From positions 18,156 to 82,155 of IMG/VR virus record IMGVR_UViG_3300022696_000117: DNA of 64,000 bases, one strand, 5' to 3'. The translations under genes were made by a program, and so were the position numbers. Positions 14,260 to 61,096 of this stretch are shown here, one piece after another. The stretch comes from a virus. Positions within the stretch are counted from its first letter, which is position 1. Each line of letters starts with the position of its first letter. The notes under the pieces are model-generated. The model searched no databases. It was not told the origin of the DNA and saw nothing but the letters and a program-made list of their open reading frames with translations.

Positions 14260-14464
14260 GCTCTTCGACCAGTTGTGGCAGGGGGGAATGATGAGCCGGT
14301 CGGATGCTTATCGATGGTTGTCCGACCGGCTCAATATCCCGCTTCATCGGTGTCACTTTCGATATTTCGGCACAGGAATGTGTAAGCGGGTGATCAGGGT
14401 CATGAACCAGGTTAAACCAAGGGAAATCAAAAATGAATATCACAGACAAACCACAACTCAATGA
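14183..14464 (+). CDS. DUF3268-like small protein (C-terminal part)
   Basis: AHKLFDQLWQ...SRSDAYRWLSDRL.....CHF..F...C. Confidence 0.6.
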   Translation: MPKAGHRRKAKKKWMTHKKAKTKAHKLFDQLWQGGMMSRSDAYRWLSDRLNIPLHRCHFRYFGTGMCKRVIRVMNQVKPREIKNEYHRQTTTQ

Positions 14465-16208
14465 GCACCAGCAGGCTGCGGTTGAGGCATCGGAGCCCAG
14501 GGTCCTTGTCCGGGCCGGCGCAGGCTCCGGAAAGACTCGAGTTCTCACCGAGCGGATCGCATACCTGATCGAGGACCGTCAGGCAAGTCCGCACGAAATC
14601 ATGGCCTTCACCTTCACCCGGAAAGCCGCCCAGGAAATGAAAGAACGGCTCCTTGTGCGGGTCGGAAGCGCCGCCCACAAGATCGACATCGGTACATTCC
14701 ATGCCGTGGGCCTCGATTTCATCCAACGCCATGCCGAAATGATCGGATTCAGGCAGGCGGTGACCGTATACGGTGAATGGGAAACCAACCACCTGATCGA
14801 AAGGGCCGCTGAGGCCCTGGGGTATAGGACAGGGAAGAAATGGAAGACACCGAAGAAGCTCATCGTGGATACGTTCAAGAGTTGCGATGAACGAGGCGAG
14901 GAGCCGGAACGGCTTCATCCGCTTCGGCCGCTTTTCGATTCCTTCATGACGACATGCAGGTCGAACAACGCAATGCACTTCGGAGCCATTCTGGTGCATT
15001 TCAGGGACCTGATTCAGTGTATCAAGAATCTCTATCCCATCCAGTATGTGTTGACCGACGAGGCTCAGGACAATGATGAGTTACAGTGGGAGATTTTGGA
15101 GCTTCTCCAGGAGCAATTCGGGGCGGAATTGTTTTGCGTTGGTGATCCTGACCAGTCCATTTACGAATTCCGTGGCGCCGTTCCGCAATATCTGATCGAG
15201 CACCAGGACGATTTCGCCGTTTATGATCTTCCGGAGAACTATCGGTCTTTCAGGCCGATTGTGGAGGCGGCGAACAGCCTCATTGGGCACAATAGCGACC
15301 GTATCGGAAGCCCAATGTCCTGCGCCAGGGCCGGCGGTGATTCGAGCGCAAGCTTTGTGCTGGAGAATTTCGACAGCGCCGTTGTGGTGGAATATTTGAA
15401 GGCCCGGAAGCTGGAGCCATCCAGAACCGCAATCCTCGCCAGAAATCATTTTCTTCTGATGAAACTCGCCAATATCATGGACGAGCAGGGGATCCACTAC
15501 CATTATATCGGCAAAAAAAGCTCGATCACCAGGACCGAGGAGTTCCAACGATTTCACGCCTACATGAAGCTGTTGGTCAATCCGTATGACGACTTCTCAT
15601 TCATGCTGGCATCCGAAGCCCTTGGTGTTTCTGTCGAACAGCTGAGGGCCCTGCGGCTGGAATCTACCCAAACAGGCGATGGGGCGTTCAGCATCTGGAG
15701 CCGGCAGGAGTTCAGCAGCCCCCCGAAATGGGTGGAGTTCTTTAATACCGCCCACAAGGACAGCTGGAGCGTTTACCGAATTGCCGGCTTCATCCAGGAC
15801 AACGGCGGCTTTGAAGACGATAAAGTCTGGCGGTTCGTCATGGAATGGTTCGAGGCGAACCCGACCGAGAGCCTGGAGGAGTACCTTTATTGGGTTTCCA
15901 CCTACGACATCCATGACGAGCTTGCAGACGACAGCAGCCAGGATTGCTATCAGCTGGCCACCATCCACGGCGCCAAGGGCCTCGAATGGCCCAACGTGAT
16001 CATCGCCGGGGTGAACGAGGGCCTTTTGCCGTCGTCTCAGGCGATTCGGTGCGGCGATATCGAGGGTGAGCGGCGGCTGATGTATGTGGCCATGACCCGG
16101 GCCGAAGAAAAGTTGATCCTTACGATCCGTCCGGAGGAGACCGTGAACGCCCGCGGGCAGGTGAACGTGAATCCTGTGAGCCGGTTTGTGGAGGAGGCGG
16201 GGTTATGA
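14433..16208 (+). CDS. UvrD/PcrA-family SF1 helicase
   Basis: LNEHQ, AGAGSGKT, TFTRKAA, DEAQD, VGDPDQSIYEFRGA, NYRS, TIHGAKGLEW, ERRLMYVAMTRA. Confidence 0.95.
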   Translation: MNITDKPQLNEHQQAAVEASEPRVLVRAGAGSGKTRVLTERIAYLIEDRQASPHEIMAFTFTRKAAQEMKERLLVRVGSAAHKIDIGTFHAVGLDFIQRHAEMIGFRQAVTVYGEWETNHLIERAAEALGYRTGKKWKTPKKLIVDTFKSCDERGEEPERLHPLRPLFDSFMTTCRSNNAMHFGAILVHFRDLIQCIKNLYPIQYVLTDEAQDNDELQWEILELLQEQFGAELFCVGDPDQSIYEFRGAVPQYLIEHQDDFAVYDLPENYRSFRPIVEAANSLIGHNSDRIGSPMSCARAGGDSSASFVLENFDSAVVVEYLKARKLEPSRTAILARNHFLLMKLANIMDEQGIHYHYIGKKSSITRTEEFQRFHAYMKLLVNPYDDFSFMLASEALGVSVEQLRALRLESTQTGDGAFSIWSRQEFSSPPKWVEFFNTAHKDSWSVYRIAGFIQDNGGFEDDKVWRFVMEWFEANPTESLEEYLYWVSTYDIHDELADDSSQDCYQLATIHGAKGLEWPNVIIAGVNEGLLPSSQAIRCGDIEGERRLMYVAMTRAEEKLILTIRPEETVNARGQVNVNPVSRFVEEAGL

Positions 16209-16480
16209 AGCAAGTATACAAATACATTCTTCGCCTTGATAGGCCTATCTGTGAAATACCAAAAGGCGGCACAATCCGCCATGTGGATGAGCAGCTCGGA
16301 AATATTTGCGTTTGGGTTGAAGTTGACCCTGATCAGCCAAAAGAGAAACGGCGCTTCGAGATTTACGGGACAGGCCATACGATTAGAGAAGATATGGGCG
16401 TAACCCGTGTGTACCTTGGTTCCGTGAAGCTTGAAGGTGGTGCGCTCATTTTTCATATTTATGAGCACACCGGTATATAA
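16205..16480 (+). CDS. Hypothetical phage protein
   Basis: VYKY...ICVWVEVDP...FEIYGTGH...YLGSV...HIYE; lower GC than neighbours. Confidence 0.7.
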   Translation: MKQVYKYILRLDRPICEIPKGGTIRHVDEQLGNICVWVEVDPDQPKEKRRFEIYGTGHTIREDMGVTRVYLGSVKLEGGALIFHIYEHTGI

Positions 16481-16503: not shown

Positions 16504-17901
16504 ATGAAACTCACCATCTCCAACTACCTCCAGCTCTACGGCCACCCGATGGAGTTGGAGAAGCACCTCACCAGGCTCCTCACCATCCAGAACCCGAGGT
16601 GGCTTGACAACGAGAAGATGAACCGGTGGCAGGGCAATACCGCTCGATTCCTGACCTATTTCCACACCGACGGCCTCGGGACGATGTCCGTACCCCGGGG
16701 CCTGGCCGTGCATGTCTGGAGGTGGTGCAAGGATCATGGGGCAGAGGTTGAGGTTGAGGATAAACGGGCGTCTTTTCCTGGTCTCAACATCAACTTCATG
16801 GGCCGCGGCCTTCGGCAATATCAGGTAGAAGCCGCGGAGGCCGTCCTGAAAAGAGACGCGGGGGTCCTCTGCGCTCCGACCGGGTCCGGAAAGACCGTCA
16901 TGGCGCTTTATCTGATTGCAAAAAGGGACCAACCGACGGTCATAGTGGTCCACACGAAGGACCTGGCCAACCAATGGATAGACCGCATAGGCCAGTTCCT
17001 CGGAATAGACGCCGGAGATATCGGACTGATCGGGGCTGGCAAGAAGACCGTCAATCCGAATGGCCTAAATGTGGCCCTGGTTCAAACCCTGTACGGCTGC
17101 GCCGATGAAATCGCATCCCATATCGGCCATCTCGTGGTTGACGAATGCCACCGGGCCCCGAGCCGGACTTTCAACGAGGCCGTAACCGCGTTCTCATCCA
17201 AGTACATTCTCGGCCTCACAGCCACCCCGTTCCGCCGGGACAAAATGACCAACCTGATTTATTGGTTTCTCGGTGATCAGGTCCATAAAATAGAGCCGGA
17301 CGGCCTTCGAGAAGACGGGCACATTCTCACCGCGGATGTGGTGGTCCGCAAAACCGACTTCAAGGCGTATTCCGACCCTAAGAACGAATACGCCAAGATG
17401 CTCTCGGAGCTGTCTTCTGATCTCCACAGGAACCGCATGATCGTTCAAGACGTGGCCGACATCGTAAACTCCGAAGAAGAGGGCGTGTGCCTGGTCCTGT
17501 CAGACAGGAAAGAGCACTGCGAGATCCTGAAGTCGGCGATTACCACCGAAAAGAAGATCCCGGCGGTCGTTCTTACCGGAGACACGCCGAATAAGCAGCG
17601 AGAAATGATCATCGACATGGTCAACCGCGGGGCGGTGCCGGTTGTGGTGGCCACCGGGCAGCTCATCGGCGAAGGGTTCGACTGCAAGAACCTGACGAAC
17701 CTTTTTTTGGCCATGCCGATCAAGTTCTCAGGGCGCCTGATCCAGTATCTCGGCCGGGTGCTTCGGCCTGCGCCGGGCAAGGAGCGGGCGCTTATCTATG
17801 ACTACGAGGATGCCAAGGTGGGTGTTCTCCGCAATTCCGCCTCCGGGCGGAGGAGGGTGTATAGGCAAAATGGATTTTCGATCACAAGAGAGGGAGCTTG
17901 A
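16504..17901 (+). CDS. SF2 DEAD/DEAH-box helicase
   Basis: LRQYQ, APTGSGKT, VVDECH, GLTATP, EGFD, QYLGRVLR. Confidence 0.95.
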   Translation: MKLTISNYLQLYGHPMELEKHLTRLLTIQNPRWLDNEKMNRWQGNTARFLTYFHTDGLGTMSVPRGLAVHVWRWCKDHGAEVEVEDKRASFPGLNINFMGRGLRQYQVEAAEAVLKRDAGVLCAPTGSGKTVMALYLIAKRDQPTVIVVHTKDLANQWIDRIGQFLGIDAGDIGLIGAGKKTVNPNGLNVALVQTLYGCADEIASHIGHLVVDECHRAPSRTFNEAVTAFSSKYILGLTATPFRRDKMTNLIYWFLGDQVHKIEPDGLREDGHILTADVVVRKTDFKAYSDPKNEYAKMLSELSSDLHRNRMIVQDVADIVNSEEEGVCLVLSDRKEHCEILKSAITTEKKIPAVVLTGDTPNKQREMIIDMVNRGAVPVVVATGQLIGEGFDCKNLTNLFLAMPIKFSGRLIQYLGRVLRPAPGKERALIYDYEDAKVGVLRNSASGRRRVYRQNGFSITREGA

Positions 17902-18277
17902 ACTGTTTGCGCCTCCGGATTACTGGACGATGCCGGTGGAGGCGCTGAAGGAAATAGCCGGTGGGTGCGGCGCAGGCAGGGGGCTTGGCGATACGCTGGT
18001 TCCGGATACCGCCTGGGGGTTATCGATCAAGCCGGCCTGCAAAATCCACGATTTCATGTACCATTTCGGCGAATGCCTGGAAGACAAAAAGGCTGCGGAC
18101 AGGGTGTTTTTGAACAATATGATCAGGATTATCGAGGCAAGAACGAGGTTCTCCTTTTTGGCACGGCTCCGCCTTCAGCGGTGCAGAACCTATTTCTTCT
18201 TCGTCAAATATTTAGGTGGGCCGGCATTCTGGAAACGCAAAAATCCCGACGCAACAATCGGAAAGGTAGCCGCATAA
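17870..18277 (+). CDS. DUF1353/phospholipase-A2-like HD protein
   Basis: GCG...ACKIHDFMY...KKAADRVFLNNM; start codon uncertain. Confidence 0.6.
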   Translation: MDFRSQERELELFAPPDYWTMPVEALKEIAGGCGAGRGLGDTLVPDTAWGLSIKPACKIHDFMYHFGECLEDKKAADRVFLNNMIRIIEARTRFSFLARLRLQRCRTYFFFVKYLGGPAFWKRKNPDATIGKVAA

Positions 18278-18531
18278 TGGAGTTGAGTCTGCACGAAATG
18301 GACACACTGGTCGACATGATCGCCGAGAGGGTCGCCCAAAAGCTGGAAGCCAGGCTTTCACCCGGGAAGTGGCTGACGTTCGAGGAAGCCATGCGGATGA
18401 TGAAGATCAAGTCAAAAGACACCCTCCGGAAGCGATTGATCGATGGTGACGTATACGGGATCAAGGACGGGGGGAAGTGGAAGGTTGATCGGGAATCTAT
18501 CGAGGATTATTTGAATCAGGAGAGGGTATGA
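18277..18531 (+). CDS. Excisionase-like winged-HTH protein
   Basis: WLTFEEAMRMMKIKSKDTLRKRLIDG...KDGGKWKVDRESIEDYL; upstream of the integrase. Confidence 0.8.
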   Translation: MELSLHEMDTLVDMIAERVAQKLEARLSPGKWLTFEEAMRMMKIKSKDTLRKRLIDGDVYGIKDGGKWKVDRESIEDYLNQERV

Positions 18532-18589
18532 CGTGCCGGGGGGGGTGTTCTCGGCTAATATCAGGGAAGTTTTACCTGTTAATCAATGG

Positions 18590-18979
18590 TTATACTTTTA
18601 TACAAGAAAGGGATTAATTATGTACAATATTGAACAGATGGGCATGATAACGGAAAGAGAATGCGAACCTGATTATAAAAAGGTCGCTGAAGTCAAGGAA
18701 AAAGAGCTTGATTTGATTTCGGATTTGATTTCTAACCTTTGTTTATTTGCCGATATGGTCGGCACACATGGGTTCAGAGATGCACACGGCAGAAATATGT
18801 TTCATGAGTTTTTGGGCACTCTGTCCCTTGACAAAAGGAATCGTGAGAAACAGTTGGAAGAGTTGAATAGTCGTATAGAAAAAAAAGTATAACCCAGCGA
18901 TGAACACGGACAAGCAGGGCATCGCTTTTGTAGCAGATTCATAATCACCGGTTGCCCTGCTTGCCGGTTATCTATTACG
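18590..18979 (+). mobile_element. Integron gene cassette (single ORF + attC)
   Basis: Starts after G in GTTATAC (18589-18595), the exact reverse complement of the attC R'' box GTATAAC (18887-18893); ends at G|TTAAAA (18979); AT-rich. Confidence 0.82.
18620..18892 (+). CDS. Cassette-borne hypothetical helical protein (90 aa)
   Basis: ATG at 18620 about 30 nt after the core site; TAA stop lies inside the R'' TAAC. Confidence 0.75.
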   Translation: MYNIEQMGMITERECEPDYKKVAEVKEKELDLISDLISNLCLFADMVGTHGFRDAHGRNMFHEFLGTLSLDKRNREKQLEELNSRIEKKV

Positions 18980-18985
18980 TTAAAA
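18887..18985 (+). other. attC recombination site
   Basis: R'' GTATAAC, 5-nt spacer, arm GAT[G]AAC[A]CGG[A]CAAGCAGGGCA pairing with TGCCCTGCTTGCCGGTTATC (three extrahelical bases), 6-nt spacer, R' GTTAAAA. Confidence 0.85.
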
Positions 18986-18995
18986 AAGAGGCATA

Positions 18996-19220
18996 ATGGC
19001 CGAGATAAAGCTATGCGCTACGACTAAGGATGGTCCGTCCATGCCAAGTGACCTGTCGGCTTGGACAGCGGACGAACCCTGGCCGGGTGGAGGCACCGTC
19101 AAGGTTTTGAAGTTTGGCATCGGAGATTCCACAATTACAATCTGGCCGGCTGACCCGGACAAAATTCATAATCTTAGCGCCAGGCTTTCCAAGATCGCTT
19201 ATGAGCTGAAAGGGGGGTAG
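18996..19220 (+). CDS. Hypothetical protein
   Basis: GAGG SD; 74-aa ORF. Confidence 0.55.
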   Translation: MAEIKLCATTKDGPSMPSDLSAWTADEPWPGGGTVKVLKFGIGDSTITIWPADPDKIHNLSARLSKIAYELKGG

Positions 19221-19225
19221 GGCGA

Positions 19226-19408
19226 ATGACCTTCGAAGAATGGCTCCGCACCCTCCCGGATGAATATCCTGCGGAGGGGTACATTTGCGGCTTACTGCGG
19301 ATGGCTTGGAATGCGGCCCTTTCCGAAAACGGTCATGAGTCCTTGACCAACCCCCACAACCCTGATAACTCAGTCTCTAATGAAAGCGAGACTGTGGAAA
19401 AGAAATAA
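19226..19408 (+). CDS. Hypothetical protein
   Basis: MTFEEW...AWNAA pattern common in small phage ORFs. Confidence 0.5.
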   Translation: MTFEEWLRTLPDEYPAEGYICGLLRMAWNAALSENGHESLTNPHNPDNSVSNESETVEKK

Positions 19409-20423
19409 CGGCCAGTATTATGCCCTGTGGGAGGAGGATGGGCGGACCCGGCAGAAGTCCCTTAAAACCGACTCCCTCAAAATAGCCAACCGGCGGTTGA
19501 AAAACTTCAACCGGGATCTGCTGGCCGGCAGCGTCAAGAAGCTCTCCCAGACAGTCCCGAAGGTCACCCTCGGCGAGCTTCGGGAAGCCTTCCTCAAATT
19601 CAAAGACGGCAGGGTGGCCAAAACCACCCTTGCCATCTACGAAACCTCTTTTGATCACGCAGAAAAAACCCTCGGGGAAGATATCCCCATTACGCACATC
19701 ACACAAAAGCGCCTGGAGCAGGTCATGGACGACATGATGGCGTCCGGGCTCAAGCCTCCGACCGTCAACAAGCACCGACGGCACCTGCGGACGGTTTTCA
19801 ACCAGGCCTACGATTGGAACTATCTGGAGAAGCCGATCAAGATGCCTAAGCCTCTGCGAGAGGAGGAGCGTCTCCGGTTCCTGTCAATCGATGAACTCAG
19901 AAAGCTCATCGATTGCATCGACGATCAGGAGTTTTTCGACTTCTGCATGTTGTCGGCCTACACCGGAATGAGATCCGGGGAGCTTCTGAGAATGATGCGG
20001 GGCCACGTCGACCGGCCGGAGGGTTTTCTATTGGTCACCTCTGAACAGAAAAACAAGGCGGACTGGATTATCCCGATCAATGACCATGCGAGGGAGATCC
20101 TGGACAGGTGCCTTTCCAGAAATCACGGACCGAGAGTGTTTCCTAAATGGCGGCTGGAGTGGGTTTCGAAGAAATTCAAGAAATATGCGAGGAAGTCAGG
20201 CTTGAAAGATTGTCGGTTCCATGATCTGAGGCATACCTTTGCAAGCCACCTTGCAATGGGTGGCCAGGATCTCCTGGTCATTCAGATGCTCATGCGCCAC
20301 AAGTCCATGTCGTCGACGATGGTGTACGCCAAGCTGTCTCCAGAACACCTTTCCAGGGCCAGCAACAGCCTTAACTTCGGCCCGATGCCGATACCTTCCA
20401 CGAAGAAGGACGGCAAGGCATAA
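19380..20423 (+). CDS. int: Phage tyrosine integrase
   Basis: N-terminal arm-binding domain; TGMRSGEL, KN, FHDLRHTFAS, LMRH, TMVY catalytic residues; adjacent to attP. Confidence 0.95.
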   Translation: MKARLWKRNNGQYYALWEEDGRTRQKSLKTDSLKIANRRLKNFNRDLLAGSVKKLSQTVPKVTLGELREAFLKFKDGRVAKTTLAIYETSFDHAEKTLGEDIPITHITQKRLEQVMDDMMASGLKPPTVNKHRRHLRTVFNQAYDWNYLEKPIKMPKPLREEERLRFLSIDELRKLIDCIDDQEFFDFCMLSAYTGMRSGELLRMMRGHVDRPEGFLLVTSEQKNKADWIIPINDHAREILDRCLSRNHGPRVFPKWRLEWVSKKFKKYARKSGLKDCRFHDLRHTFASHLAMGGQDLLVIQMLMRHKSMSSTMVYAKLSPEHLSRASNSLNFGPMPIPSTKKDGKA

Positions 20424-20476
20424 TGGAACCCAAAGTGGAAAGCATCCCCCAAAACAGCTGCTTCCAAGGTCTGTTT

Positions 20477-20550
20477 TTGCAATATCTTTGCAATGCCCAG
20501 AGATTGTGTTTCCATTGCAAATCCATTGCAAAATTTTTCCTATTGCAAAA
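20477..20550. repeat. TTGCAA/CATTGCAAA repeats; likely integrase arm-type sites (left arm)
   Basis: Five TTGCAA copies in about 75 bp between int and the core. Confidence 0.7.
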
Positions 20551-20597
20551 ACCTCTCAGATGGCTTACCGTAAATGACTGAATTGAGGGGTTATTTT

Positions 20598-20648
20598 TGG
20601 TACGCCCGGCAGGATTCGAACCTGCGGCCTACGGATTAGAAGTCCGTT
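20598..20648 (-). other. attP core: 3' half of tRNA-Arg(TCT)
   Basis: Minus strand ACGGA-CTTCTAA-TCCGT anticodon arm, GGTTCGAATCC T-loop, ...GGGCGTACCA end; D-arm and 5' acceptor strand absent. Confidence 0.9.
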
Positions 20649-20703
20649 CCAGCCCACAGCTGAAAACCCCGCAATTTCAAGTAATTCCCTAAAAATCAGA
20701 CCC

Positions 20704-20731
20704 TTGTAAAGCTTTCCCGGATGGGTAAAAT
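20704..20731 (+). promoter_or_regulatory. Candidate terL promoter TTGTAA-N16-TAAAAT overlapped by operator TTTCCCGGATGGGTAA (20713-20728)
   Basis: Same architecture as the 8525-8553 promoter. Confidence 0.55.
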
Positions 20732-20763
20732 GGACTAAAACGGGCCATTTCGGGCTCATTTTT

Positions 20764-20799
20764 CATTGCAAAACATTGCAATTCTACCCAAACGGGTAA
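20764..20799. repeat. Tandem CATTGCAA arm-type repeats (right arm) abutting operator CTACCCAAACGGGTAA (20784-20799)
   Basis: Same motif as the left arm, on the other side of the core. Confidence 0.65.
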
Positions 20800-20825
20800 A
20801 GTAAAGGATACCAGCCAGGAATAAA

Positions 20826-22661
20826 ATGGCCAAGTTCAACGCAGCGTATCGCAACGGCGGGGAGGGAATGACCCAATGGGTTGAGGATTTCGTTCGGATG
20901 CCGATCTATCCGGAGGGCAGCCCTATTCCAGTTTGGGTTCCCATGAACGACCTGCCTCAAGAGCCCAATCTCGACACCGGAAGGTCATACCAGACGATAT
21001 GGGACGCACAGAAAGACATCCTCCACGAGGCCCTCGCCATGAAAAACGGCCGGTTCATCCACCGGCTGATCGTCCTGTGCTGGATGCGTGGCGAAGGAAA
21101 GACCGTCATAGGGCCCTGCCTGATCAATCTGTGGAAATTCATGAACTGGCCCAGGCAGAACATTGTCCTCGGAGCCAACTCCAAAGATCAGACCAAGTTC
21201 ATCACTTTCGATATCATCCGTGACATGATTCTGAACAGCCCCAACCTGCTTGCGTTGGTCGGCAAGAAGAATATCCGGGAAAAAGAGATCCGGCTGAGAG
21301 ACGCAAAAGGCAACGTCGTGTCAACCATCAGAGCTGTCTCATCTTTTTCCGGCATCCTGTCGAACATCACCGGGTACGCTTTCAGCGAAATCTTTCAGAT
21401 GAACAACCCGGAATTTTTCCAGCAGATCGACGGATCCATCCGAAATGTTCCCAACGCGATGGGCGTCATCGACTCCACAGTGTCATCGAAGGACCATATC
21501 CTGTACCAGCTCTACGAAGCCGATCGTGACGGCCAGGACCCGACCATCTATTTTTCATACCGGTGCTCTCACGATGGCGACTATCGAGATTACTGGCATC
21601 CCAACCAGAATCAGAGTCAGCTTGACTCATATCGGGTGAAGTTCAAGGCAGGCAACGGGTTCAAGCGGTATTTTCAGAACCTGTGGTCTGCCGGCTCCGA
21701 AAAGTTTTTTCCGGAAGAGATCATCGAGGCATCCTATTATGTCGGTCTCTATGGGCGACCGAACGATTTCAACGGAATCAAGGAGCAGATATCCAGAATA
21801 CATGGACTCAGGCGGGAGATTGATGCTTTTGCCAAAAAGGATGTCGAGCTTGCTGATTTCAAAATCAGATTCGAGGTCGCCCGAAAAGAGCTTCAACCGG
21901 TTGAGGACATCTACCAGCTTGGTACGACCCAGGGCCTCCCGCGGCATTGTTCAATCGATGAGCTGGAGGATCTCTCCGACTTTTTCGATACCGATTGGGC
22001 CATCGCCGCCGGCATCGACCGGGCCGACCCGGGAAAGACCAGGACCGGGGCAAGAACCATGCTGTCCGTGGTAGGCAAGGGCATGATCGGCAGCCGATCC
22101 AATCCGCATCTCTGGACCTCGATTGCCAAGGACTATATCTATTGCGTCCTCCATGTGGCCGACATCGCAGATCATAGTTTGGTCGGCATCAAAGCCGAAA
22201 TCCTGAAATGCCACGAGGAATATGAAGGGGTGGATCTGGTATCGTCAGAACGATTCGGGCTTTGGGATCTGAAGGAGTGGGGTGAGGAGAACGACATACG
22301 GTTCGACCTGATATACCCGACCTTCGATCGCCAGAAGGACGCCTTCTACGAGTTTTTCCGGATCATGGATTCGGGCCGGCTCAAGATGCCGCGAGTGTAT
22401 GTCCCGGGGTCCCGGAGTTCGGACATTCTCCGCGAGGAGCTATCAATGTTCGAGAGCGAAATCAGATCAGAGACGCAGGGCTGGTTCGGTTCTCCTGAAA
22501 AGAAAAAGATGAAAGGCGTCCAGGACGATTTGGTCTTTGCAATGGCGTGGGCCGTCTACGGCGCCAGGGTTCTCACCGTAGACGACTTTCGGGGCAGGGG
22601 GGCAAAGGTTGAGTTCGGGGATTCTATTTCTCCGAGGGGATTGCTCGGAGCGTATGCTTGA
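20826..22661 (+). CDS. terL: Terminase large subunit
   Basis: WDAQ Q-motif, Walker A-like WMRGEGKT, IDST coupling motif, RYFQNLW, nuclease AAGIDRA and QDDLVFAMAWA. Confidence 0.8.
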   Translation: MAKFNAAYRNGGEGMTQWVEDFVRMPIYPEGSPIPVWVPMNDLPQEPNLDTGRSYQTIWDAQKDILHEALAMKNGRFIHRLIVLCWMRGEGKTVIGPCLINLWKFMNWPRQNIVLGANSKDQTKFITFDIIRDMILNSPNLLALVGKKNIREKEIRLRDAKGNVVSTIRAVSSFSGILSNITGYAFSEIFQMNNPEFFQQIDGSIRNVPNAMGVIDSTVSSKDHILYQLYEADRDGQDPTIYFSYRCSHDGDYRDYWHPNQNQSQLDSYRVKFKAGNGFKRYFQNLWSAGSEKFFPEEIIEASYYVGLYGRPNDFNGIKEQISRIHGLRREIDAFAKKDVELADFKIRFEVARKELQPVEDIYQLGTTQGLPRHCSIDELEDLSDFFDTDWAIAAGIDRADPGKTRTGARTMLSVVGKGMIGSRSNPHLWTSIAKDYIYCVLHVADIADHSLVGIKAEILKCHEEYEGVDLVSSERFGLWDLKEWGEENDIRFDLIYPTFDRQKDAFYEFFRIMDSGRLKMPRVYVPGSRSSDILREELSMFESEIRSETQGWFGSPEKKKMKGVQDDLVFAMAWAVYGARVLTVDDFRGRGAKVEFGDSISPRGLLGAYA

Positions 22662-32457: not shown

Positions 32458-32862
32458 TTAAAGTTCCATGATTTTAATCGTCAAACTGTGGAATCTGTCA
32501 TTTTCCTCGAAAACGGGCTTGTTCATGTGGATCGGGACGGCTGAAATCACCGGTGGGTCTTCATGCGGAAACCTGAACTTGATTTTTGCTCCATGGTGGT
32601 TCCAAACGTACTGTGCGTCAGGCACCTGGGTAAGGGCGTGAAGATCGGCCAGGTCTTTGAAAAGGATGGTGGCTGTTGTTTGAGTCCCGGCGAACACCCT
32701 TATCGGATTGTAATCCGGGCCCTCGAATAGAATTATGTTTCTGGCCAGCGCCCGCTCGACCACCGAGAATACCCCGGTGAATGCCAGCGGCTCCTGCTCT
32801 ACAAGCTCGCTCGGCAATAGCACCAGACGCTCGGTCTCGTTAATATCCCATAGCGAAATCAT
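32458..32862 (-). CDS. Distal-tail-like protein
   Basis: 134-aa ORF directly after the TMP. Confidence 0.55.
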   Translation of the reverse strand: MISLWDINETERLVLLPSELVEQEPLAFTGVFSVVERALARNIILFEGPDYNPIRVFAGTQTTATILFKDLADLHALTQVPDAQYVWNHHGAKIKFRFPHEDPPVISAVPIHMNKPVFEENDRFHSLTIKIMEL

Positions 32863-35800
32863 TCGGTCTCCGTCGTTTTTCCATTCTGATTTGCTCCTTG
32901 AACTGTTCTATCTGGTCTACTCTGTCGTAAACCTGAACTGTGGTATTGCCAAGAGTTAAATCCATTTTCCCCATATTTGTTGCTTCCTGAGCCGGACGAA
33001 CGGCCCCACCGGTTGCGAAATGCTGAACGACCTGCTGTGTGAACTGAGGAACCATCTTCGGGACCGATATCTTGGGCATGACAGGTTTCACCGGCCCACC
33101 GAGGCTGAACTTCTGCACGAAAGAGCTCATGATGTCCTTTGCGTCGGACTTGGATCTGGATCGGAGCCAATTGAAGAAGCCGTGGCCGCCGAAGTTCTGC
33201 ACGGTCGGCACGTCGATGACATGCTCGTTCGGTGTCAGCATGGCCGGTACGGTGTCTCCGGTTCCGGACCCGGGCACCCGGCCGCCGGTTGCGTATTTCA
33301 GGGGGGTGTCGCCCATCTTGCTGGTGATGTCCTTGGCCATCTTGGCAAGTTTTTTGAGCTTGCCTTCTGCTTCGGTGGTGTCCAGCTCGAATTTGGTTCC
33401 GGACTCAAGCTTATCCATGAACTCACCGGCCTTCTCCCTCGCCCTGTCGAGACCGGCATTGACTTCTTGTTCCAGCCGCTTCCCGATCGCTTCCAGCCGA
33501 CCGTCGGTTACGGCCAGGGTCTTCTGGAGGGTGGCTGTGTGTTCCTCGGTTTTGGCCTGTGCTCTCTCCAGAACCTTAATCCGGCCTTCCTCTTCGGATT
33601 TAAGCGTGGAGAACATTTTCTTGACCGCTTCGGTGGATCTGGACCTTGCCCTCTCTGCGGAGATGATGACCTTTTCTTCGTCCTTGATCTCTCCCGTCAT
33701 ACCCTTGGCGGCGTTCATCGCCTCCTTGATGAGCTTGATCTTTTCTTCGTACCGATCGTTGCCCATCGCAACCGCTTTGTTGTATTTCTCGTTGATCTCA
33801 GCCCACTTGTCCTCGTAGGCTGCCTGTTCCGACATCCCTTCGCGTTTTTGGTCGCGGAGCCATTCTTCAACCGATTTCTGTTCTTCGGCCAGGCCCCTGC
33901 GAATATCGAGGATCTCGTTTGCGACATCCTTTTCCATCTGAAGGGACGCTTCAAGCTCAGACTTCAGGGCCTGCCTGGCTTCTTCGTAATGCTTCTTCTT
34001 GGCTCTAAGCACCTGCTCGTCGATGTCCTTGACTTCCTCGGCGTATTGTTTTTCAGCCTTGGTCATCTCCTTGGCCACATCGACGACGATCTTCTTTTTC
34101 TTTTCGGCGCCCTGGACCCGGTTCTGGGCGTCTGACTCGTAGAGGCGCTTCTTGGCCTCGTTGGCCTCCTTTTCGAGCGTCTCCATATCGATGTAGAATC
34201 TTTTGGTGCCTGCCAGAACATCCTGGTTGTGCTTGTCGATCAGGCCCTCGTTCATCGACCAGAATTTGTGGCGCTCGATGGCGTATTCGAGATCCAGGCG
34301 TTCCTGGTCGGTGATGGCCTCGGCTGTCGCCGCGGTCTCCTTGTTCAGGGCATCTTTTTTGATCCCGAGCGACCTGGCCGCGGCGTCCTTTTCCTTGGCC
34401 GCATAGTCGTCCAAGGCCGTGGCAGCAAGCCCGAGGGATTCTCTGATGGCGCTGACCCGCTCCTGGGCCATTTTCAGGTTTATGGCTCTGATCTTGTCTT
34501 CAATGGTCTGCACCTGGCTGACATCAGGAACGATGCCGTAATATTGCGCCAGGGCCGCATTCTGTTTTTTGGCGGCGTCTATTTCTTCGCCTGACAACTT
34601 GGAATAATCACCAATGGATTCTTTGAGAGAGGCCAGGAACAGCTCCTTACCCCTGGCGTATTTTTCTTCGGTGCTGAGGGTGCCGAGATAAACCCTGACT
34701 TTTTCTGCATGGGCCTCCTTTGCGATCCGGATCTCTTCTTCCGACATCTCCGAGAGAACCCCGATAGATTCGTTCAGGGCCTTGTAGAGCGGGCTGTTTT
34801 TCGGAGAGAAGCCTGAGATCTCTTTCTTGAGGAAGGTGCTTTCAGCCTCGACCTTGAGCCGTTCAAGTTCGGTGATTTCATTCTGGTAGGCTTCGATCTT
34901 CTTGGAGGATTCCTCCTGGATTCGCTTGGTCTTGGCCGCGATGTCGTCCAGGACATTCTGGATGGATGCCTGGCGGGTAACCTTCATTTCGTCTTCGGCG
35001 ATCTTTTTAAAAGCCTCAAACCTTTCACGCCAAATCGACTGAACCGTAGCAGAAATCTCTTCTTCGGTGTGTTTCATCGACTTGGCCTTGTTCTGATAGG
35101 CAATCGCTTCAGACTTGGTGTCAGCGAAGAACTTTTCGAAAGAGATTTTCCTTCTTGAATCCAGTTTTCCGTAAAACTCCTCGAATTCGTTGTACGTGCT
35201 TTTTAGAACCCTATGGTCTCTGCTTCCGGTTTTGCTCCAGTCGAACAGTTTTTCGAAGAGAGATTTTTTAGGCATTGCGTCGTTTACTTTTTGGGTGCCC
35301 TCCTTCACGATGCCCAAAAACTCCAGGATGGTCTGCCAGAAAGACTTCTTCGCAGGCTCTCCGTCTTCACCAACGAAAGAGGTGACTATCCGTGGCCTCA
35401 AAGCGTTCGCTTCTCTTTCGAATTCTCTGGTGAGGCCGGTCATTTCTTCGGTTTTTTCTGACAGATCAGTTTCGCTCGACCCCCTGCCTCTGAACCAGAC
35501 AACGGCTTTTGCAACCAGGCCTTTGCTGATCGTCTCCATCGCCCGCTTCATTCTGACTGCAACACTGTCGACCACGTTGTCATCGAGCATCGCTTCAAGC
35601 GGGTTGATGTCCTTGATGGTCCGCTCCACCTCTTCAAGGGAGGTTTCAGTCTCGGATTTTATTCTGTTGAAGAACCCGGATACCAACCCAAGTCCTGGAA
35701 TCTGGTCTGTTATCCAGGCCATGGCCTCCGCAAAGGACTTCTTTACGTCAAGCAGAAAGGCATGGATGTAGCCATATGCTTTCATGGTGTAGTCGTTCAC

Positions 35801-38800
35801 CTTCATCGGCAAAGTGCCGAATAGGTCCATGTCGCCTATGATTCTGCCGAGATCCCAACCGATGAAGAAAGCCTGAACCGCAGCCATCACCATATTAAAC
35901 TTGGATGCCACGGTAGCCGCTGCGCCCGCTATCTTTGCCAGGCCGGTACTCAGACCTGGGACCTTCGCAACCATGGCAGTAAATGCCTTGGCGGCCGAGG
36001 ACCCGTGCGTAGACAGTTTGGCGAATGCGGTTCTGCCTATTTCGGAGAGGCCGGTAATGGCTTTTCGTGCCAGGTCCGCAGAAGAAGCCATTACCTTGAA
36101 CGGTCTTTGTGCGAATTTGAAATACTCTTGCAGCCCCTTTATTCCAAGCTTGATGCCGGCCACCACGCTTTTGTTCTTATCCATGAAGTCGACAAAAGCA
36201 GCGGAGATCCCGTTTTTAGCGTCAGAGGCAATCTTGGCTGGGGCTGTGAGCGCATCAGTCAGGGCCGTTTTCACCTTCTCAGCGGCGATTTCCGCCTTGT
36301 CGGATATGCTTGTCTTTAAATCGAATCCGAGCGTGAAGACTTTCCCGACATTGGCCATCATGCCGATAGATTTTTTGGTCCAGGCTTCAAAAATTGAACT
36401 CATGGCGCCGAGGGCATCGGCCCATTTCGGGGAGAAGTAACCAACCGTGTTGTCTATTACGGCCCTGAACGAGTCACCTATGGTAGAAACAAAGCCAAGC
36501 GCAATGCCTTCCGCCTCGTCGAGCTTTTTGTTCAGGCCTACAAGGAAGTCCTCTCCGTCCTGGCCCACCAAAGAGATGATGTATCTTGCGCCCATGTGAT
36601 AGGCGTCTTCTGCAAGCTGTCGAAGCTCTTTCCCGGTGTTCAGGATTTTGTCGATCAGCGGCTCACCATTGTCTGCAATGAACCGCATCGTGAAATTGGT
36701 GTTCAGCTTCGATAGAGACGCCTTGAATTTTTCAGAGAAGAACAGGAACTCGTCCAGCCTGTCTTCAGGGGTCTTTTCGCCCTCATCAGTCACGAGGTTT
36801 ACGACGAAATTCGGAGAGTGTTTCTTGACCGAATCTGAAAACTCTTCGAGCTTGGCTTCGGTGGCGTCTATAGCGTCGCCCACAGGCTTTCCTGCGCCGT
36901 CCGTGAAGAAGGTCTTGACCTTTTCTGCGTTCTTGTCTGCCTTCTTGAAGATGCCCCTTATAGAATGGACGACGTTTGAGGCGAAGGCAATTGGGTCGTC
37001 TCCGTCCTCCGTCTCTATACCGAGACGCATGATGGCGTTGATGTTGCCTACGCTCTTCGAAAAAGATGTCGCCTTCGAGATATTCTTCTTTACGCCATCC
37101 GTGAAGCTGTCGCCTTCGTCGGTCCCGAAGAAAATTGAAAGACCGGTCTTCAGACGGCCGGTCCAGGTGGAGAATTTGTTCAGGTTTTCCTTCAGCAGAT
37201 CAACCTGCTCAGAAACAGGAACACCTTCCGTGGTCCCGTCGCTTCCGGTAAAGGCTATCCTGAATAGAGCCGCCCCGGCCTTGGCTCGGTCCAGAAGACT
37301 GCCCTCGCCTCTGAATTGGGCATAGAGATTACTCAGCTCATCTCCGCCCTCTACCGAGATTTCGACCTTTTTTTCACCGGATAGGGCATCGGCTTTTTTG
37401 CCGAGAGTATCGAGTTCTTTAGACGCTTCCGCGACAGCCGGTCCCAGGTTGAAAAAACCTGATATTGCCTTGACGGCTCCGCTTCCTCCAATCTTGGAAA
37501 AGAATCCGGACGCCGACTCCGCAGCGGATGACAATCCATCTCTCAGCTTTTCTGCGGTCTCGTATGCCCCTATGAGGGCCTTCGGCATATCTATGCCGAA
37601 CTTTTCGCCTATCTTCTGTACGGTGATCAGCGCACCGCCGACCGAGTCGATCATATCGGCGGCTTGCTCTTCAACCGGCCGGCCGTCGTCTCCGAGGATT
37701 CCAAAGGTGAGCGTGGCCTTGAGGTCGTTCACCTTGGTCACCAAGGCTGTGGCGGCCATCAGCGCCTTCTTGGCCTCCTCCGGGATCGGCGCACCGGTCT
37801 TTGCAGCCACTACGCCGATCTTCAGCGCGGCCTTGGCTGCATTGATGGTGTTCTGCGTCTTTTCGACGTCGCCCATGACCGCTCTGAGTTTGTCTTCTAT
37901 GGGCATTTTTTGACCTTCGTCAGAAACGAAGACCTCGAAAGCGGTTTTCATGCCCGATATGGTGCCGGATGCCTCGGAAAATTTCCCCATCATTTTCTCG
38001 ATGGCGTCATCAAGGGGTATCCCAGTAGCGTCCGAAAATTCGGCGATGAAGGAAACAAGCAGGCCACCGATAAACTTGACGAGGGACATGAATTGGTCCT
38101 TGGCCCACGACAACCCCTCAGAAAGCGGCATGCCTCCGATCTTTATGTCTGCGGTCATTTCGGCAGTGGTTTTGTTGATATAGTCTGACAGGGCCTTGAA
38201 CTTACCCTTGACCCACTCTACTATCCCCCCGAATGAAATCCCTTCTTCCGTTTCGAACTTGGCTCTGAACTTTGTTATTGTTTCGTTTATTGAGTCGGAA
38301 AGGAGCTTCATCCTTTTTTTGATGTGCTCCATCTGCTCTTCAAGAGGTGCCCCGTCCTTGGTCCAGAATCTCACCGAGAAAACAGCGCCGAGAGTCCCGA
38401 TTACCTGCTTCAAGCCCTCGAACCCCTTCAGGGTTTCTGATATCCTTTGCGTAATCGGCTTCCCGTTTTCTGAGGAAAACTTTATCTTGAACTCGGACGC
38501 CTTTCCTTTCACATACTTTGATGCCTCTAAGATATTCTCTTTCACCCACTTCAAAGTAGACGAAAGCGGGTTTCCTTCTCCATCGGTGAACTTCGTAATA
38601 AAGCTGGTCACCACCCGCCCGACCCGGCGGGCCATCCCCATGATGCCGCCTTCCATATCCTTGATTTTTTCTGTGAGCGGCTTTACACTGTTGTTTTCGC
38701 CCATGAAGGAGACGGTGAAGGTGGAGACCAGGCCCTCAATCAGGCCTGCCAGGCCCTCTGCGGACTTGGCGACCTCTCCCATTTTTGCGGTGGTAGCCAG

Positions 38801-41800
38801 TCCGTCGGCTGACAAAAAGTCTGTGGTGAAGGTGCTCCCGAGATTAGAGACCAGGTCGCTTAGGCTTTTGGACTCATCGATGATATCCAGAACCCGGTCT
38901 TCAAACGGAATGCCGGTTTCGGCTTCGAAGGAAACCATGAACTTGGTGGCCATCTTGCCGATCTCGGCAGCCACGTCATACCCTGCCTCAACTGTTTTCA
39001 GCGCGGCTTCATCGAAAGGTATCCCGTCGTCAGAAACGAACATAGCCGTGAAGTAGGATTTCAGGCTGTTGATCTTCTCGGACGTGTTCTGGGCGAGAGA
39101 AAGGATTTCCCGACTTTCCTCGGACAGGTTTGCGCCGCCCTCTCCCTTGAAGAGAGTCGTGAAGGTAGCCTTGATGTTGTCTATCTGCTCAGACGTACCT
39201 TTTATCCGCCCGTAAACGGACTGGATCGTCTCGAACAGGGGCTTTTCATCCTTGTCTGCGTCTCCGATAAAGGCGACCTTGAAGATGTTTTTGGCCGCAA
39301 ACATCTTGCCGATGGTGCTTTTGTAGAGACCGAACGCCTTGGTCATGGCCCCGGTCATCAACTCGAAAACAGATGGCCACTCCTTCACATCACCGGCTGC
39401 TTCGATTTCAAGGGTGATCGGATCTTTCTGTATTTCCTTCTGGCCGTCCTTGATGGTTTTGCGGATCTCTTCTATGGCCTTGTCGACCGGTAAGCCCCCG
39501 GATGTCTGGAAGTCGACATTGACGACCGAATCGGTCTCTTCGGCATCCTTTCTGAGGTCACCGAGTTCGGCCTGGATCTCTTCGATTTTTTCACCGAGGA
39601 GCTTTGTGTCTGAAGCAGTCCCGGTGAACACCAGATTGATATTGCCGTCTACAGCGGTGTCAGCCCTGAACTGGTTGATGTATCCGGTCATTTCCTCGAA
39701 TGTTTCTTTGAGCCGGGATGTGTTCAGGGTGAACGGGGTCTGGCTGATCTCCTCTATTTTTTTGCGGTATCCCTCAAGGATGGCTTCGGTCTGCTGGATC
39801 TCGCCCCTGATGGCGTCCATCTGGGTTTTGAATTCGGCTCTTTGCTTTTCGAGGATGGCAACAGCCGCTTCGTGGCTTTTGGTGATGCCCTCCTTGGCCG
39901 CGTCGGCTGTCTGCTCGACCGAAGCAATGGTCTTTCCGGATTCATCAACCACGTCCCGGGCCAGGCCCTTGAACATGGATTGGGCCTCTCGGACCATCTC
40001 AGCGTTCTGAGTTTTGATGCCTTCCGCCAGGAGCCGGTTGGCCTCTTCACGATCGTTCAGCCACCGCTCCTCGTCGGACATGGTTTTCTGTTGAACGTCC
40101 CGCATGTCCTCCATGTAGGACTTGTTTACATTCTCGATCGCTTCGTTGGTGGACTCTACCTGGCCGCGGAGCCGATCATACTGGCCCTCCAGCTCCCGAA
40201 TGTGACCGGATACGATGCTCTTGACCTTGTCGTAGGCCCTCCGGATACCGGCAACATATTTCTCGTTGACCACCTCCATGTAGCCGATAATTCTGCCCTC
40301 GGCCTCCTGGCGGGAGATGGATGCCTTGCGGTACTCCCTGACGGTCTGATCGATGAAGCCCCTGACTATCTGGACCGCCTTCTGCTCACGGTCCTGGACC
40401 GCATCGAGCATCTTGTTGTTTTCGAGCATGTAATCCGCATACTCTTTTGCCCTGAGCGCGGCCATACTTTCGATCCGGTCCTTCTCGGCCAGGTTCAACT
40501 CTTCGGCCCGGTCCTTGAACTGAGAGATCCTCGACCCCAGATTCTTGTTGAATTCGACGAATCCTACTTTGTCCGCCGCCGACATGTCGTCGATCATTCG
40601 TCGGTAGTCTCTGGGAAGCTCCTGGACTGAAGATCGAAACGTGGCTGCTACACGGCCCACCCTTCCTTCAACCTCTGCGATCGCTGACAACATGGCATCG
40701 GCCAGGTCCCTCGCCACTTCAGGACCCACACGCATCGAGTTTATCATTTTCAGAATCTCGACACGGTTCATCCCGTACTTCTGGTTCAGGACCAAAAAGG
40801 TTTTGGCCAAGTCCCTTATGTTGTCCTTATAGTTTTCAGTGGCCTCATCAAGCTGTTCTATTAGAACTTTCTGGCCTGGAGCCGCCAGAAGGGGGGATAG
40901 GTTTTCGCTCGGCATGGCAGCTGTTCGCTGCCGCTCCATCATGTCGTATAGAGCCTGAAGCGATTTGGCTTGCTCATCGAGTTCGCCGGTTATTTTGACT
41001 TTCTCAACCTCAAGCATGGCTTCTGCGAGCTTCGGATAAGCTAAAGAGGCGAGGTCGACAACCCCCAGAAGGTCTCTTAGGCTTTCGGCAAGAGATCCTT
41101 GTTCCTTTGAGAATCTTTCAAGCATGTTTTCGTATGAATCGTCCGGCCTCTTTGAGAGCTCTTCGAGTGTTCTCCGGTAAAAAGAAAGGGTCTCCGCACT
41201 TTCTTTGAACGCGATGGCCTGAATTCTCGCCTCTTCAGATGTCCTCTGAAGCGCCGTGCTAAACCTATTGAGGATGATCAACAGGCCGGATATTGCCGTG
41301 GTCCATACAATGAAAGGGTTGGCCTGGAGCGCCCGCATGAGCCCTCTCTTGGCCCATATGGCTGCTCCGGCGGCACCGAAAGACGTGGCTACCCTGGTGA
41401 GGTGCTTAGCAAATACAACGATTGCTGTCCCTGCGAAGGCTTTATTGAGAAACTGAGCCGCTTTAGCAAGGCTGGCGATCCCTGCCGTAGCAAGCCCAAG
41501 CTGAGTCACCAGCCCCCCGAAATCGCTTTTTACGAAACTTTCAAGGCCCGTGAAAACCACCTTCATGGTATCGGCCAAAACGCCGAATGCGCCTGCGAGA
41601 CCTCTTTCACCAATAGCAATCGCAAGGTTGCCGGCCCGGTCGGCCGCATTCTTGAACTTGACCGCGAGGCCAAGGGCCTGGGTGTCAGCCATCTCCATGG
41701 CGGTCCCAAGGCGCTTGACCATGTCCATGGCCTCGTCGTATTTGCCGCTCATGAATGCTTCTGTGATGGCGGCGGCTGCCTGGGCGCCACGAAGCCGGAA

Positions 41801-43363: not shown

Positions 43364-43475
43364 CGCGTCGCATATCCGGGCCCTCCCTTTGGGGCGATCC
43401 CTTATGTGGATGGGGAGGGGGAAGCCGGCCAAGGGTAAACCGGCGTTCGGGAGCTACCCTATCCCCCAAGCTGGA

Positions 43476-59799: not shown

Positions 59800-60675
59800 T
59801 TAGTTCGCCCACCCGAGCCCGTCCGAGACTCGCTTTCTCAGCATATCCTCGGTGGGGTGCAGGTAGACCTTTTCGATTATATCCCTCGAATCGCCCAACA
59901 GAAAGGCGATATCCTCCAGCCGCATCTCGGCATCGTAGAACAGCTTTGTCGCCACGAAATGCCTGAACACATGGGTGAGACGCCCGGGCTCCTTCAGCCC
60001 GAGTTCCTTCAGCATGTAATCTATCAGGGCTTTGATCCGTGGGGCCTCGATGTTAAACAGCTTCCTGTCCGGATCTTCGAACAACTCCTCCTTGGATTCA
60101 AGGTATCGCCTCATAAGATCCCTCGTGATCGGGTTCACAAAAACATGCCGGCAGGTCGTTTTCGAGATGCCGATGTAGATCGAGCGCTTCTCGACGTTCA
60201 CGTCCCGGACCTTGATGCTTGCGATCTCACGAACCCGGCAGCCGGTCTCGGCCAGGAGCCGGACGATCAGGTGATTGCGGTCATGGTGGTTCGGGAACTC
60301 GAATTCCATGCACCGCTTCACGTCTTCTTCGGTGAGCCACCGCCGTACCTGCTTCTGCCGATACTGATGCTGTTCGGCATTGGTGATGCGGTAGGTGAAT
60401 CCTTTGACCGGGCTGCCGGTCTTCGCCATCATCATACGAATGACGTTGCAATAATACTGGATGGTCTTCCCGGAAACTCCCCGGGTCGACTGAGTGAACC
60501 TTATGAACGCCTCGGTGTGGTCCACCAAGGACTTGTCCAGGTGGCGCACACCCGCCGAATCGCAGTATCGGACCAGGGCGTCCAGCGCATATCCATATGT
60601 GTCTCTGGTGGTCTTGGCCAGGCCCCGGATATCGGGACTGTTCAGGAACCTCTTAATCCTCTGTCTCGGTGTCAT
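59800..60675 (-). CDS. Second tyrosine recombinase (Xer-like, no arm-binding domain)
   Basis: ETGCRVREI, SKT, HVFRH, LLGD, KVY; GGAGG SD before ATG at 60675. Confidence 0.85.
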   Translation of the reverse strand: MTPRQRIKRFLNSPDIRGLAKTTRDTYGYALDALVRYCDSAGVRHLDKSLVDHTEAFIRFTQSTRGVSGKTIQYYCNVIRMMMAKTGSPVKGFTYRITNAEQHQYRQKQVRRWLTEEDVKRCMEFEFPNHHDRNHLIVRLLAETGCRVREIASIKVRDVNVEKRSIYIGISKTTCRHVFVNPITRDLMRRYLESKEELFEDPDRKLFNIEAPRIKALIDYMLKELGLKEPGRLTHVFRHFVATKLFYDAEMRLEDIAFLLGDSRDIIEKVYLHPTEDMLRKRVSDGLGWAN

Positions 60676-61096
60676 CGTCAGCCTCCGAAAATATGTTCCG
60701 GATGGTATCCGGATCGCCTCCGAGGGCCTCGAAGAACGAGGCGATCTTCTCGACACAGGGGCCGCAGACCGGATCGACACCCACGGTGAACGGATGCCCG
60801 CCTGCGTTCAGGGCCTGGTCGCAGAAGTAGCAGTCTCCTCGGGAAGCGTTGTATTTATCGTTTATTTCCTGGAAGTAATCGACCCCTTCGGTCAGTTCGA
60901 CCAGGTCGAAGTCCCCCTTGCCTACGGTGCCGAGTCCCTCATCCACCTGCATGAGGATGGAGGCCCCGATGAATGAGATGATCTTCTGTCTCATGTCGTC
61001 AGGCAGTCCGGCCAAATGATCGATGGCCTGGACCAGGACCGGGTCCTCCTTCTCGGCTTTCCGCTGGAACAGATCGATTATCTTTTTGTCCACCAT
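60653..61096 (-). CDS. Hypothetical protein with two CxxC motifs
   Basis: CYFC...CGPC; AGGAG SD. Confidence 0.6.
   Translation of the reverse strand: MVDKKIIDLFQRKAEKEDPVLVQAIDHLAGLPDDMRQKIISFIGASILMQVDEGLGTVGKGDFDLVELTEGVDYFQEINDKYNASRGDCYFCDQALNAGGHPFTVGVDPVCGPCVEKIASFFEALGGDPDTIRNIFSEADDDTETED

Follow-up and report, generated by a model that had tools for sequence, protein, structure and literature searches.

The 390-bp unit at positions 18590-18979 (+) of the window, by which we mean the whole 64,000-nt stretch of DNA that was analyzed, is very probably a true integron gene cassette, present in linear form after insertion. From its sequence, we read it as a cassette that a host integron integrase (IntI) inserted at a secondary site, making it a SALIN in a temperate phage. 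It is bounded by two G|TT junctions and lies between the excisionase-like gene xis and the phage integrase gene int. The window forms part of an IMG/VR virus record with a total length of 82 kb.

Every gene around the cassette is on the + strand. Upstream are a UvrD-type helicase (14433-16208), a DUF7352 gene (16205-16480), an SF2 helicase (16504-17901) and xis (18277-18531), an HTH_17 gene with matches to Pfam PF12728 and phrog_66 that is the final phage gene ahead of the insertion. The first phage-side gene past the cassette is ORF74 (18996-19220), whose ribosome binding site (AAGAGG) stands just 3' of the junction. It is followed by ORF60 (19226-19408), int (19380-20423), which is a phage tyrosine integrase (PF00589 and phrog_1) and not an IntI, and a terminase-like gene (20826-22661). 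ORF74 had no family match and no homolog in related integration modules. Farther along, the phage structural region contains a single 3530-aa open reading frame (32840-43432, - strand). When IMG/VR was searched with ORF90 (the cassette's own reading frame), int, xis and ORF74, nothing closer than 28% was returned, so this phage is without close relatives there.

Just past int, at 20599-20650 on the - strand, is the 3' half of a tRNA-Arg(UCU), with matches to tRNA-Arg and to the epsilon34 attP, and with CATTGCAA arm-type repeats on its flanks. At least five copies of CATTGCAA(A) occur in 20460-20800, on both sides of the tRNA-Arg(UCU) core, and by their arrangement are likely to be arm-type integrase binding sites. 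A search of the window found no complete tRNA gene. On these features, we identify the core as attP and the contig as the phage form of a temperate phage. This identification also means that the cassette has phage DNA on both sides.

The initial annotation had described an AT-rich 90-aa ORF ending in a canonical attC, and this description was accurate. ORF90 (18620-18892, +; GC 0.38) lies directly upstream of the attC and in the same orientation, as in a one-ORF cassette. Its TAA stop codon (18890-18892) falls within the R'' box GTATAAC (18887-18893), a layout likewise seen in the host-order array L046, in region L018 and in genome G638. ORF90 is putatively promoterless; one weak promoter-like match was found at 18599-18628. 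The GC content of 18590-18979 is 0.397 versus 0.512 and 0.532 in the 500-nt flanks, and this break in composition coincides with the cassette junctions.

The attC spans 18887-18985 (+). After R'' come a 5-nt spacer, CCAGC (18894-18898), the 5' arm (L''/stem) GAT[G]AAC[A]CGG[A]CAAGCAGGGCA (18899-18921), the loop (18922-18952), the 3' arm (stem/L') TGCCCTGCTTG-CCG-GTT-ATC (18953-18972), a 6-nt spacer, TATTAC (18973-18978), and a hybrid R' box, GTTAAAA (18979-18985). The stem, put at about 20 bp in the initial annotation, has 20 bp, and the asymmetric 5/6-nt spacers and the R'' and R' boxes are also as given there. Three bases are extrahelical (G18902, A18906 and A18910), all on the R''-side arm, and G18902 occupies the consensus bulge position of the covariance model described below. 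On the bottom strand they read C, T and T, which differs from the G and T of textbook class 1 and VCR attC sites and counts against the identification; the host-order attC consensus, however, has G (top strand) at the first bulge.

Folding of the bottom strand, proposed earlier as a check, gave -19.6 kcal/mol (z = -3.99), and none of 200 shuffles did as well. The top strand folded at -18.3 kcal/mol (z = -2.74). An inner stem, GGACAAGCAGGGCA...TGCCCTGCTTG, lies outside the modeled core and agrees with the long-loop class of attC seen in arrays L055 and L041. The orientation of the L boxes (GATGAAC/GTTATC) was considered as an argument against an attC and was dropped, since host-order sites show no such constraint.

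We scored the site with covariance models built from attC sites of the putative host order. The sources were 18 Desulfobacterales regions on the 5' side of intI genes scoring above the 265-bit cut-off of TIGR02249, the NCBIfam integron integrase model. Several of these regions were simple cassette arrays, in which the ORFs were co-oriented and each had a hairpin after it, running from ...AAC to GTT.... Two hand-written attC finders were abandoned in favor of covariance models: one was over-strict, demanding complementarity between R'' and the downstream R', and the other was unspecific. Since MAFFT alignments of mixed-length attC sites mis-registered the 3' arms, the seed of the first model (R1) was limited to four mutually consistent sites. 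R1 found 33 sites, from which R2 was built. R2 in turn found 73, of which 71 lay on the strand to be expected given how intI is oriented, and the 73 gave R3. The window was excluded from the building of every attC covariance model.

The covariance-model match that the initial annotation had asked for was obtained with R3, which is based on 73 host-order attC sites: 29.6 bits, with an E-value of about 3e-5 that, like that of R2, rests on a shortened calibration. The match is full-length and on the + strand. With filters off and both strands searched, the runner-up in the window reached 11.5 bits, and the - strand of the window gave no R3 match at E<=10. Under the same settings, the best R2 match in the window was 18887-18985 (+), at 20.6 bits (E 0.011). 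With the default filters of Infernal, R1 and R2 missed the window site, which was seen only with filters off. The alignment is in register throughout, from R'' and the 5-nt spacer through the 3-bp L box, the bulged G, CGGAC and the 3' arm to the 6-nt spacer and R'. For orientation, IntegronFinder keeps attC sites at E<1 (PMC4889954).

The background searched was approximately 134 kb, of which 46 kb came from related integration modules and 89 kb from other DNA; here the maximum score was 17.3 bits, barring three higher-scoring sites that on inspection were attC sites themselves. True array attC sites scored between 18 and 69 bits, which places the 29.6 bits of the window site in the lower third. 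An Rfam scan of 17500-20000 returned nothing relevant; Rfam is without an attC family. The searches also turned up a convincing attC at L062 308-364 (G239:C65; 20.7 bits, ACATAAC...GTTAGCC), after a restriction-endonuclease-like ORF. It is approximately 0.8 kb from a tRNA fragment upstream of a related integrase, and the DNA beyond that fragment is probably host.

The two ends of the cassette can be read in terms of the way cassettes recombine. In an array, the six bases of R' past the G belong to the next cassette, and the circular form of a cassette pairs them with its own R''. The left junction here is G|TTATAC (18589-18595, +), in which TTATAC corresponds to the cassette's own R' remainder. 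As had been pointed out in the initial annotation, this upstream GTTATAC is the exact complement of R'' GTATAAC, with agreement at 4/4 variable positions. At the right junction, G|TTAAAA (18979-18985, +), TTAAAA corresponds to the right half of the original target.

We checked this rule on 63 real array cassettes. R'' and the upstream R' were complementary at 4/4 positions in 46 of the 63, versus 3.4% of random pairs. For the downstream hybrid R', full complementarity to R'' was found in 3/83, and the mode in arrays was 2/4. The downstream GTTAAAA of the phage is complementary to R'' at 2/4 variable positions, like the hybrid R' of arrays. The box pair GTATAAC/GTTATAC occurs in three host-order arrays. 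GTTATAC arose in 0.8% of shuffles (P = 0.008) of the 88-nt stretch from the xis stop to the ORF90 start. Since the phage unit obeys the R''/R' rule, 18590-18979 carries the footprint of two G|TT crossovers, and the recombination footprint proposed for both cassette ends is borne out. The R''/R' boxes, spacers, extrahelical bases, model score, co-oriented ORF and left-end partner are those of an integron cassette.

The phage itself has no integron integrase. The 82-kb record encodes two tyrosine recombinases, int and a second gene distant from attP (59800-60780, - strand), and these scored 32 and 28.8 bits, respectively, against the TIGR02249 cut-off of 265; the absence noted in the initial annotation thus extends to the whole record. 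An intI beside attI and cassettes, as in a complete integron, was not found on the 82-kb record, nor was a cluster of at least two attC sites lacking intI (a CALIN), since there is one attC in the window and none in the remaining 18 kb (L057). What is present, one attC that goes with a CDS and has neither another att site nor an intI near it, is the arrangement of a SALIN.

The host, a sulfate-reducing sediment bacterium, is probably a member of the Desulfobacterales or Desulfobulbales, as judged from two kinds of sequence match. Seven Desulfobacterales/Desulfobulbales genomes, Desulfatibacillum alkenivorans among them, contain an exact 49-nt match to the attP core, as does one Acidobacteriota MAG. 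Relatives of int with 37-46% identity, each with an xis-like neighbor, were found in 11 of 401 sampled host-order genomes. The attP core matches, together with these related int/xis loci in the sampled order, make a Desulfobacterota host the most likely one. This lineage is very rich in integrons. TIGR02249 was matched above its cut-off in 183 of the 401 sampled genomes of the host order (the order containing Desulfatibacillum), often in several copies per genome, and IntI is present in two of five genomes bearing the exact attP core. Because the record is without IntI and IntI is common in the host order, a host IntI acting in trans is the economical explanation.

Ten of 12 related loci have a homolog of xis (26-43% identity) ahead of int, at a distance of 45-120 nt, and those related xis-int modules had no attC and no homolog of ORF90, ORF74 or ORF60. 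Given that the related modules have xis against int, the 850-nt gap seen here is derived. The relatives also lack ORF74 and ORF60, so the gap has gained more than the cassette and the pre-insertion site is a reconstruction; neither a relative with the empty site nor a population variant was found. Removing the cassette in silico gives ...TTAATCAATGG|TTAAAAAAGAGGCATAATG, with the GTT core 14 nt ahead of the ORF74 start. The sole related module with an xis-int gap of approximately 1 kb is at L068 457-1501 (G130:C98), and no attC was found in that gap.

The initial annotation had also suggested that 18560-18595 might act as an attI-like landing pad. An attI is the double-stranded docking site of an IntI ahead of the first cassette; it is defined functionally, and each IntI has its own. 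We located the attI-cassette junctions of ten host-order integrons by the complementarity rule and built a PWM from these ten. Many host-order attI junctions read CTAAT(N4-5)G|TT, for example CTAATAATGG|TT, CTAATCATCG|TT and CTAATCCTTGG|TT, and the phage junction reads TTAATCAATGG|TT with the same polarity. The left half of the target, GTTAATCAATGG (18578-18589, +), ends in the crossover G, and its resemblance to the host attI cores is suggestive. The phage junction scored 7.65 bits with the PWM, ranking fourth of 1664 GTT sites in the window and falling inside the leave-one-out range of real attI sites, but the matrix favors any AT-rich stretch and other AT-rich sites in the window reach equally high scores. 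What stands of the landing-pad proposal is the likeness of the left 12 nt to attI cores; an ordinary attG-type site fits equally well. Because the PWM favors AT-rich DNA, our reading is of a secondary (attG-type) site with likeness to an attI core, rather than of a proven docking site.

A more ambitious reading is that the phage keeps a functional attI-like docking site (18545-18589 plus GTTAAAA) and borrows host IntI in trans to fill it again and again, the present cassette being the current occupant. We consider this unlikely. The host-like core with its polarity and high PWM rank would fit, as would a second CTAATAT motif with CTCGG ahead of it (18551-18563), like those of L046 and L047, and the occurrence of GTTTTAC, GTTAATC and GTTATAC at 9- and 11-nt spacing. 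However, just one cassette is there, no second phage with another cassette at the same spot was found, the related xis-int modules have neither such a spacer nor an attC, and the PWM mostly rewards AT-richness. Moreover, attI is not conserved across integron classes, and GWT with loose context suffices for off-target insertion (Loot et al., bioRxiv 10.1101/2022.09.11.507474). There is a similarly slim chance that such an attI-like site would load host cassettes via SOS-induced host IntI at prophage induction. If that were true, the temperate phages of integron-rich Desulfobacterota would routinely move cassettes from host to host in a site-specific way, and a two-cassette cluster in a prophage-like region of genome G088, described below, would be a second instance.

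The upstream motif, CTCGGCTAATATC (18551-18563), has CTAATAT preceded by CTCGG as in L046 and L047, and precedes the junction by 26 nt. It is similar to the attI cores CTCGCTAATAATGG and CTCGCTAATCATCG but has no GTT after it, and could be a second IntI-binding-like motif or a chance occurrence. The putative attI sites of L046, L047, L041, L044 and L056 have a CTAAT-N4-5-G|TT core in common, and in L046, L047 and L044 a short inverted repeat (e.g., GAGCG...GCTCG) stands ahead of the attI core.

ORF90 and its attC might instead have been acquired from a host array without IntI, by illegitimate or microhomology exchange or by aberrant excision, in which case the match at the boundary would be coincidental. 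Phage genomes are mosaic, ORF74 and ORF60 are also in the xis-int gap and absent from relatives, and the hexamer GGTTAT is repeated, at 18588-18593 and at 18966-18971. Qi et al. (PMC9892861) discuss one such route, in which off-target recombination, either homologous or illegitimate, takes place at GTTRRRY-like motifs. Against such a route, G|TT marks the precise position of both ends, the remainder on the left is a perfect partner of R'' (P about 0.008), and the shift in composition coincides with the junctions; left of 18589 there is no trace of an upstream attC or of other array DNA. We therefore regard it as very unlikely.

ORF90 had no Pfam or PHROG family match. Its family comprises about ten small metagenomic proteins (P0005-P0014), all on short metagenomic contigs; the relatives are 87-94 aa long, one being 76% identical and eight 29-38% identical. 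Metagenome scans for the ORF90 family returned no match. AlphaFold2 modeled ORF90 with a mean pLDDT of 82 and two long helices, and on this model it is predicted to be a helical hairpin protein. Comparison of the model with BFVD and PDB yielded only non-specific helical-hairpin matches (E>0.4).

A search for the ORF in chromosomal cassette arrays, which the initial annotation had recommended, found one family member that is a cassette. When 401 Desulfobacterota genomes were searched with a profile, the end of contig G638:C143 gave a C-terminal fragment that is 44% identical to ORF90 residues 63-87. The stop codon of the fragment is inside the R'' box (GGTTAAC) of a 39.8-bit attC, and the 3.7-kb contig carries four co-oriented attC sites. 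By this arrangement, the fragment reads as a cassette-array member of the ORF90 family with the same build as the phage copy. A remote homolog of ORF90 (hhalign probability 96.6%), which is not a cassette, belongs to an early region of G088 that is prophage-like.

It is extremely unlikely that ORF90 is just a moron (a phage accessory gene) whose hairpin, formed by chance or of the terminator type, happens to resemble an attC. In favor of this reading, AT-rich morons with their own hairpins are common close to int, the remote homolog in G088 is itself without an attC, and a T-run follows the hairpin on the - strand. Against it, the model score exceeds the window background by 18 bits, on one strand only, there is no terminator-like call on the + strand at the hairpin, the junction rule holds, and the closer family member, in G638:C143, is a real cassette.

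A prophage-like early region of G088 contains two strong attC sites, of 33.7 and 45.2 bits (L018 13389-13774 = G088:C123:58388-58773). A PAPS-reductase-like gene and a 68-aa ORF are bounded by these sites, for which the R''/R' rule holds as well (GTTATAT/ATATAAC). This prophage-like early region also holds a rep O-like gene, NinB, HNH, endolysin and a phrog_1967 helicase. The IntI of the G088 genome sits on a different contig from the attC pair. On this gene content, we read the pair as a second case of cassettes within phage-type DNA, in the Desulfobacterales.

Under our preferred explanation, insertion by host IntI at a secondary site, a circular cassette would have brought an attC with the R box GTATAAC/GTTATAC. 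A host integron integrase, acting in trans, would have joined the folded bottom strand of this attC to the double-stranded phage site ...TTAATCAATGG|TTAAAAAAGAGG at G|TT, and the crossover would have produced G|TTATAC as the left junction and ...G|TTAAAA as the right one. The target would have been in the xis-ORF74 intergenic spacer, with a left half like the host-order attI core. Because the cassette is co-directional with the xis-int gene string, read-through from a phage promoter could transcribe ORF90. With an attC and two junctions that are all intact, the cassette could be excised by the IntI of a later host, which would make the phage a possible vehicle. We infer insertion by IntI, expression of ORF90 and continued mobility of the cassette from this arrangement.

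Several features of this unit have precedents. Loot et al. described SALINs and attG sites with a GWT core, and reported that inserted cassettes are expressible from nearby promoters and can be re-excised (bioRxiv 10.1101/2022.09.11.507474). Secondary-site insertion of cassettes is represented by Recchia & Hall 1995 (aadB in RSF1010) and Segal 1999, both cited in PMC4889954. As in SALINs, the phage unit consists of one CDS and one attC, neither intI nor a further attC is close by, and both junctions are G|TT in a GWT-type core. It is likewise oriented with a resident promoter from which it may be expressed, and its structure should leave it excisable. It differs in that the recipient is a phage xis-int intergenic spacer instead of a chromosome or plasmid. 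In addition, the CRGM right-hand motif of the IntI1 hotspots in E. coli is missing and the target is attI-core-like instead.

Qi, Rajabal, Ghaly, Tetu and Gillings (2023) surveyed integron components in phage genomes, and five phage attC sites were recombined with attI1 by IntI1 (PMC9892861). Their attC sites and cassettes, like ours, are phage-borne without a phage IntI, and they proposed phages as cassette carriers (PMC9892861). However, their survey counted only CALINs (at least two attC) and integron fragments, whereas here a single cassette has both footprints readable. Our case also differs in its Desulfobacterota host lineage and in the location of the insertion inside the integration module of a temperate phage.

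The sedentary arrays of the Desulfobacterales (L046, L047, L054, L039, L052 and others) have the same sequence of R'', 5-nt spacer, 3 bp, bulge and stem with CGGAC. They also share the GTATAAC/GTTATAC box type (in three arrays), the stop in R'' and the long-loop class with a CAGGGC inner stem. Unlike them, the phage copy has no intI, Pc or neighboring cassettes; it has two extra bulged A residues and is flanked by phage genes. Because attC sites in phages and off-site cassettes have already been published, the phenomenon is a known one and the novelty claimed for it earlier was too high. Here the host lineage is new, the position in the xis-int spacer of a temperate phage is notable, and the single cassette with its readable junctions is a clean example.

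Integron cassettes travel on plasmids and transposons. Their carriage by phages has been documented recently, mainly as multi-attC clusters of unclear origin. Because both junctions of a single cassette are readable here, the event can be reconstructed as an IntI-type crossover that took place at a G|TT of the phage. The finding leaves current views of integrons as they are. The attC and the reconstructed target form a defined substrate pair for asking whether non-clinical IntI enzymes prefer attI-like secondary sites. The protein encoded by ORF90, predicted to be helical, is a candidate for a function useful to both phage and host. The cassette itself is direct sequence evidence of cross-talk between a host integron and a temperate phage.
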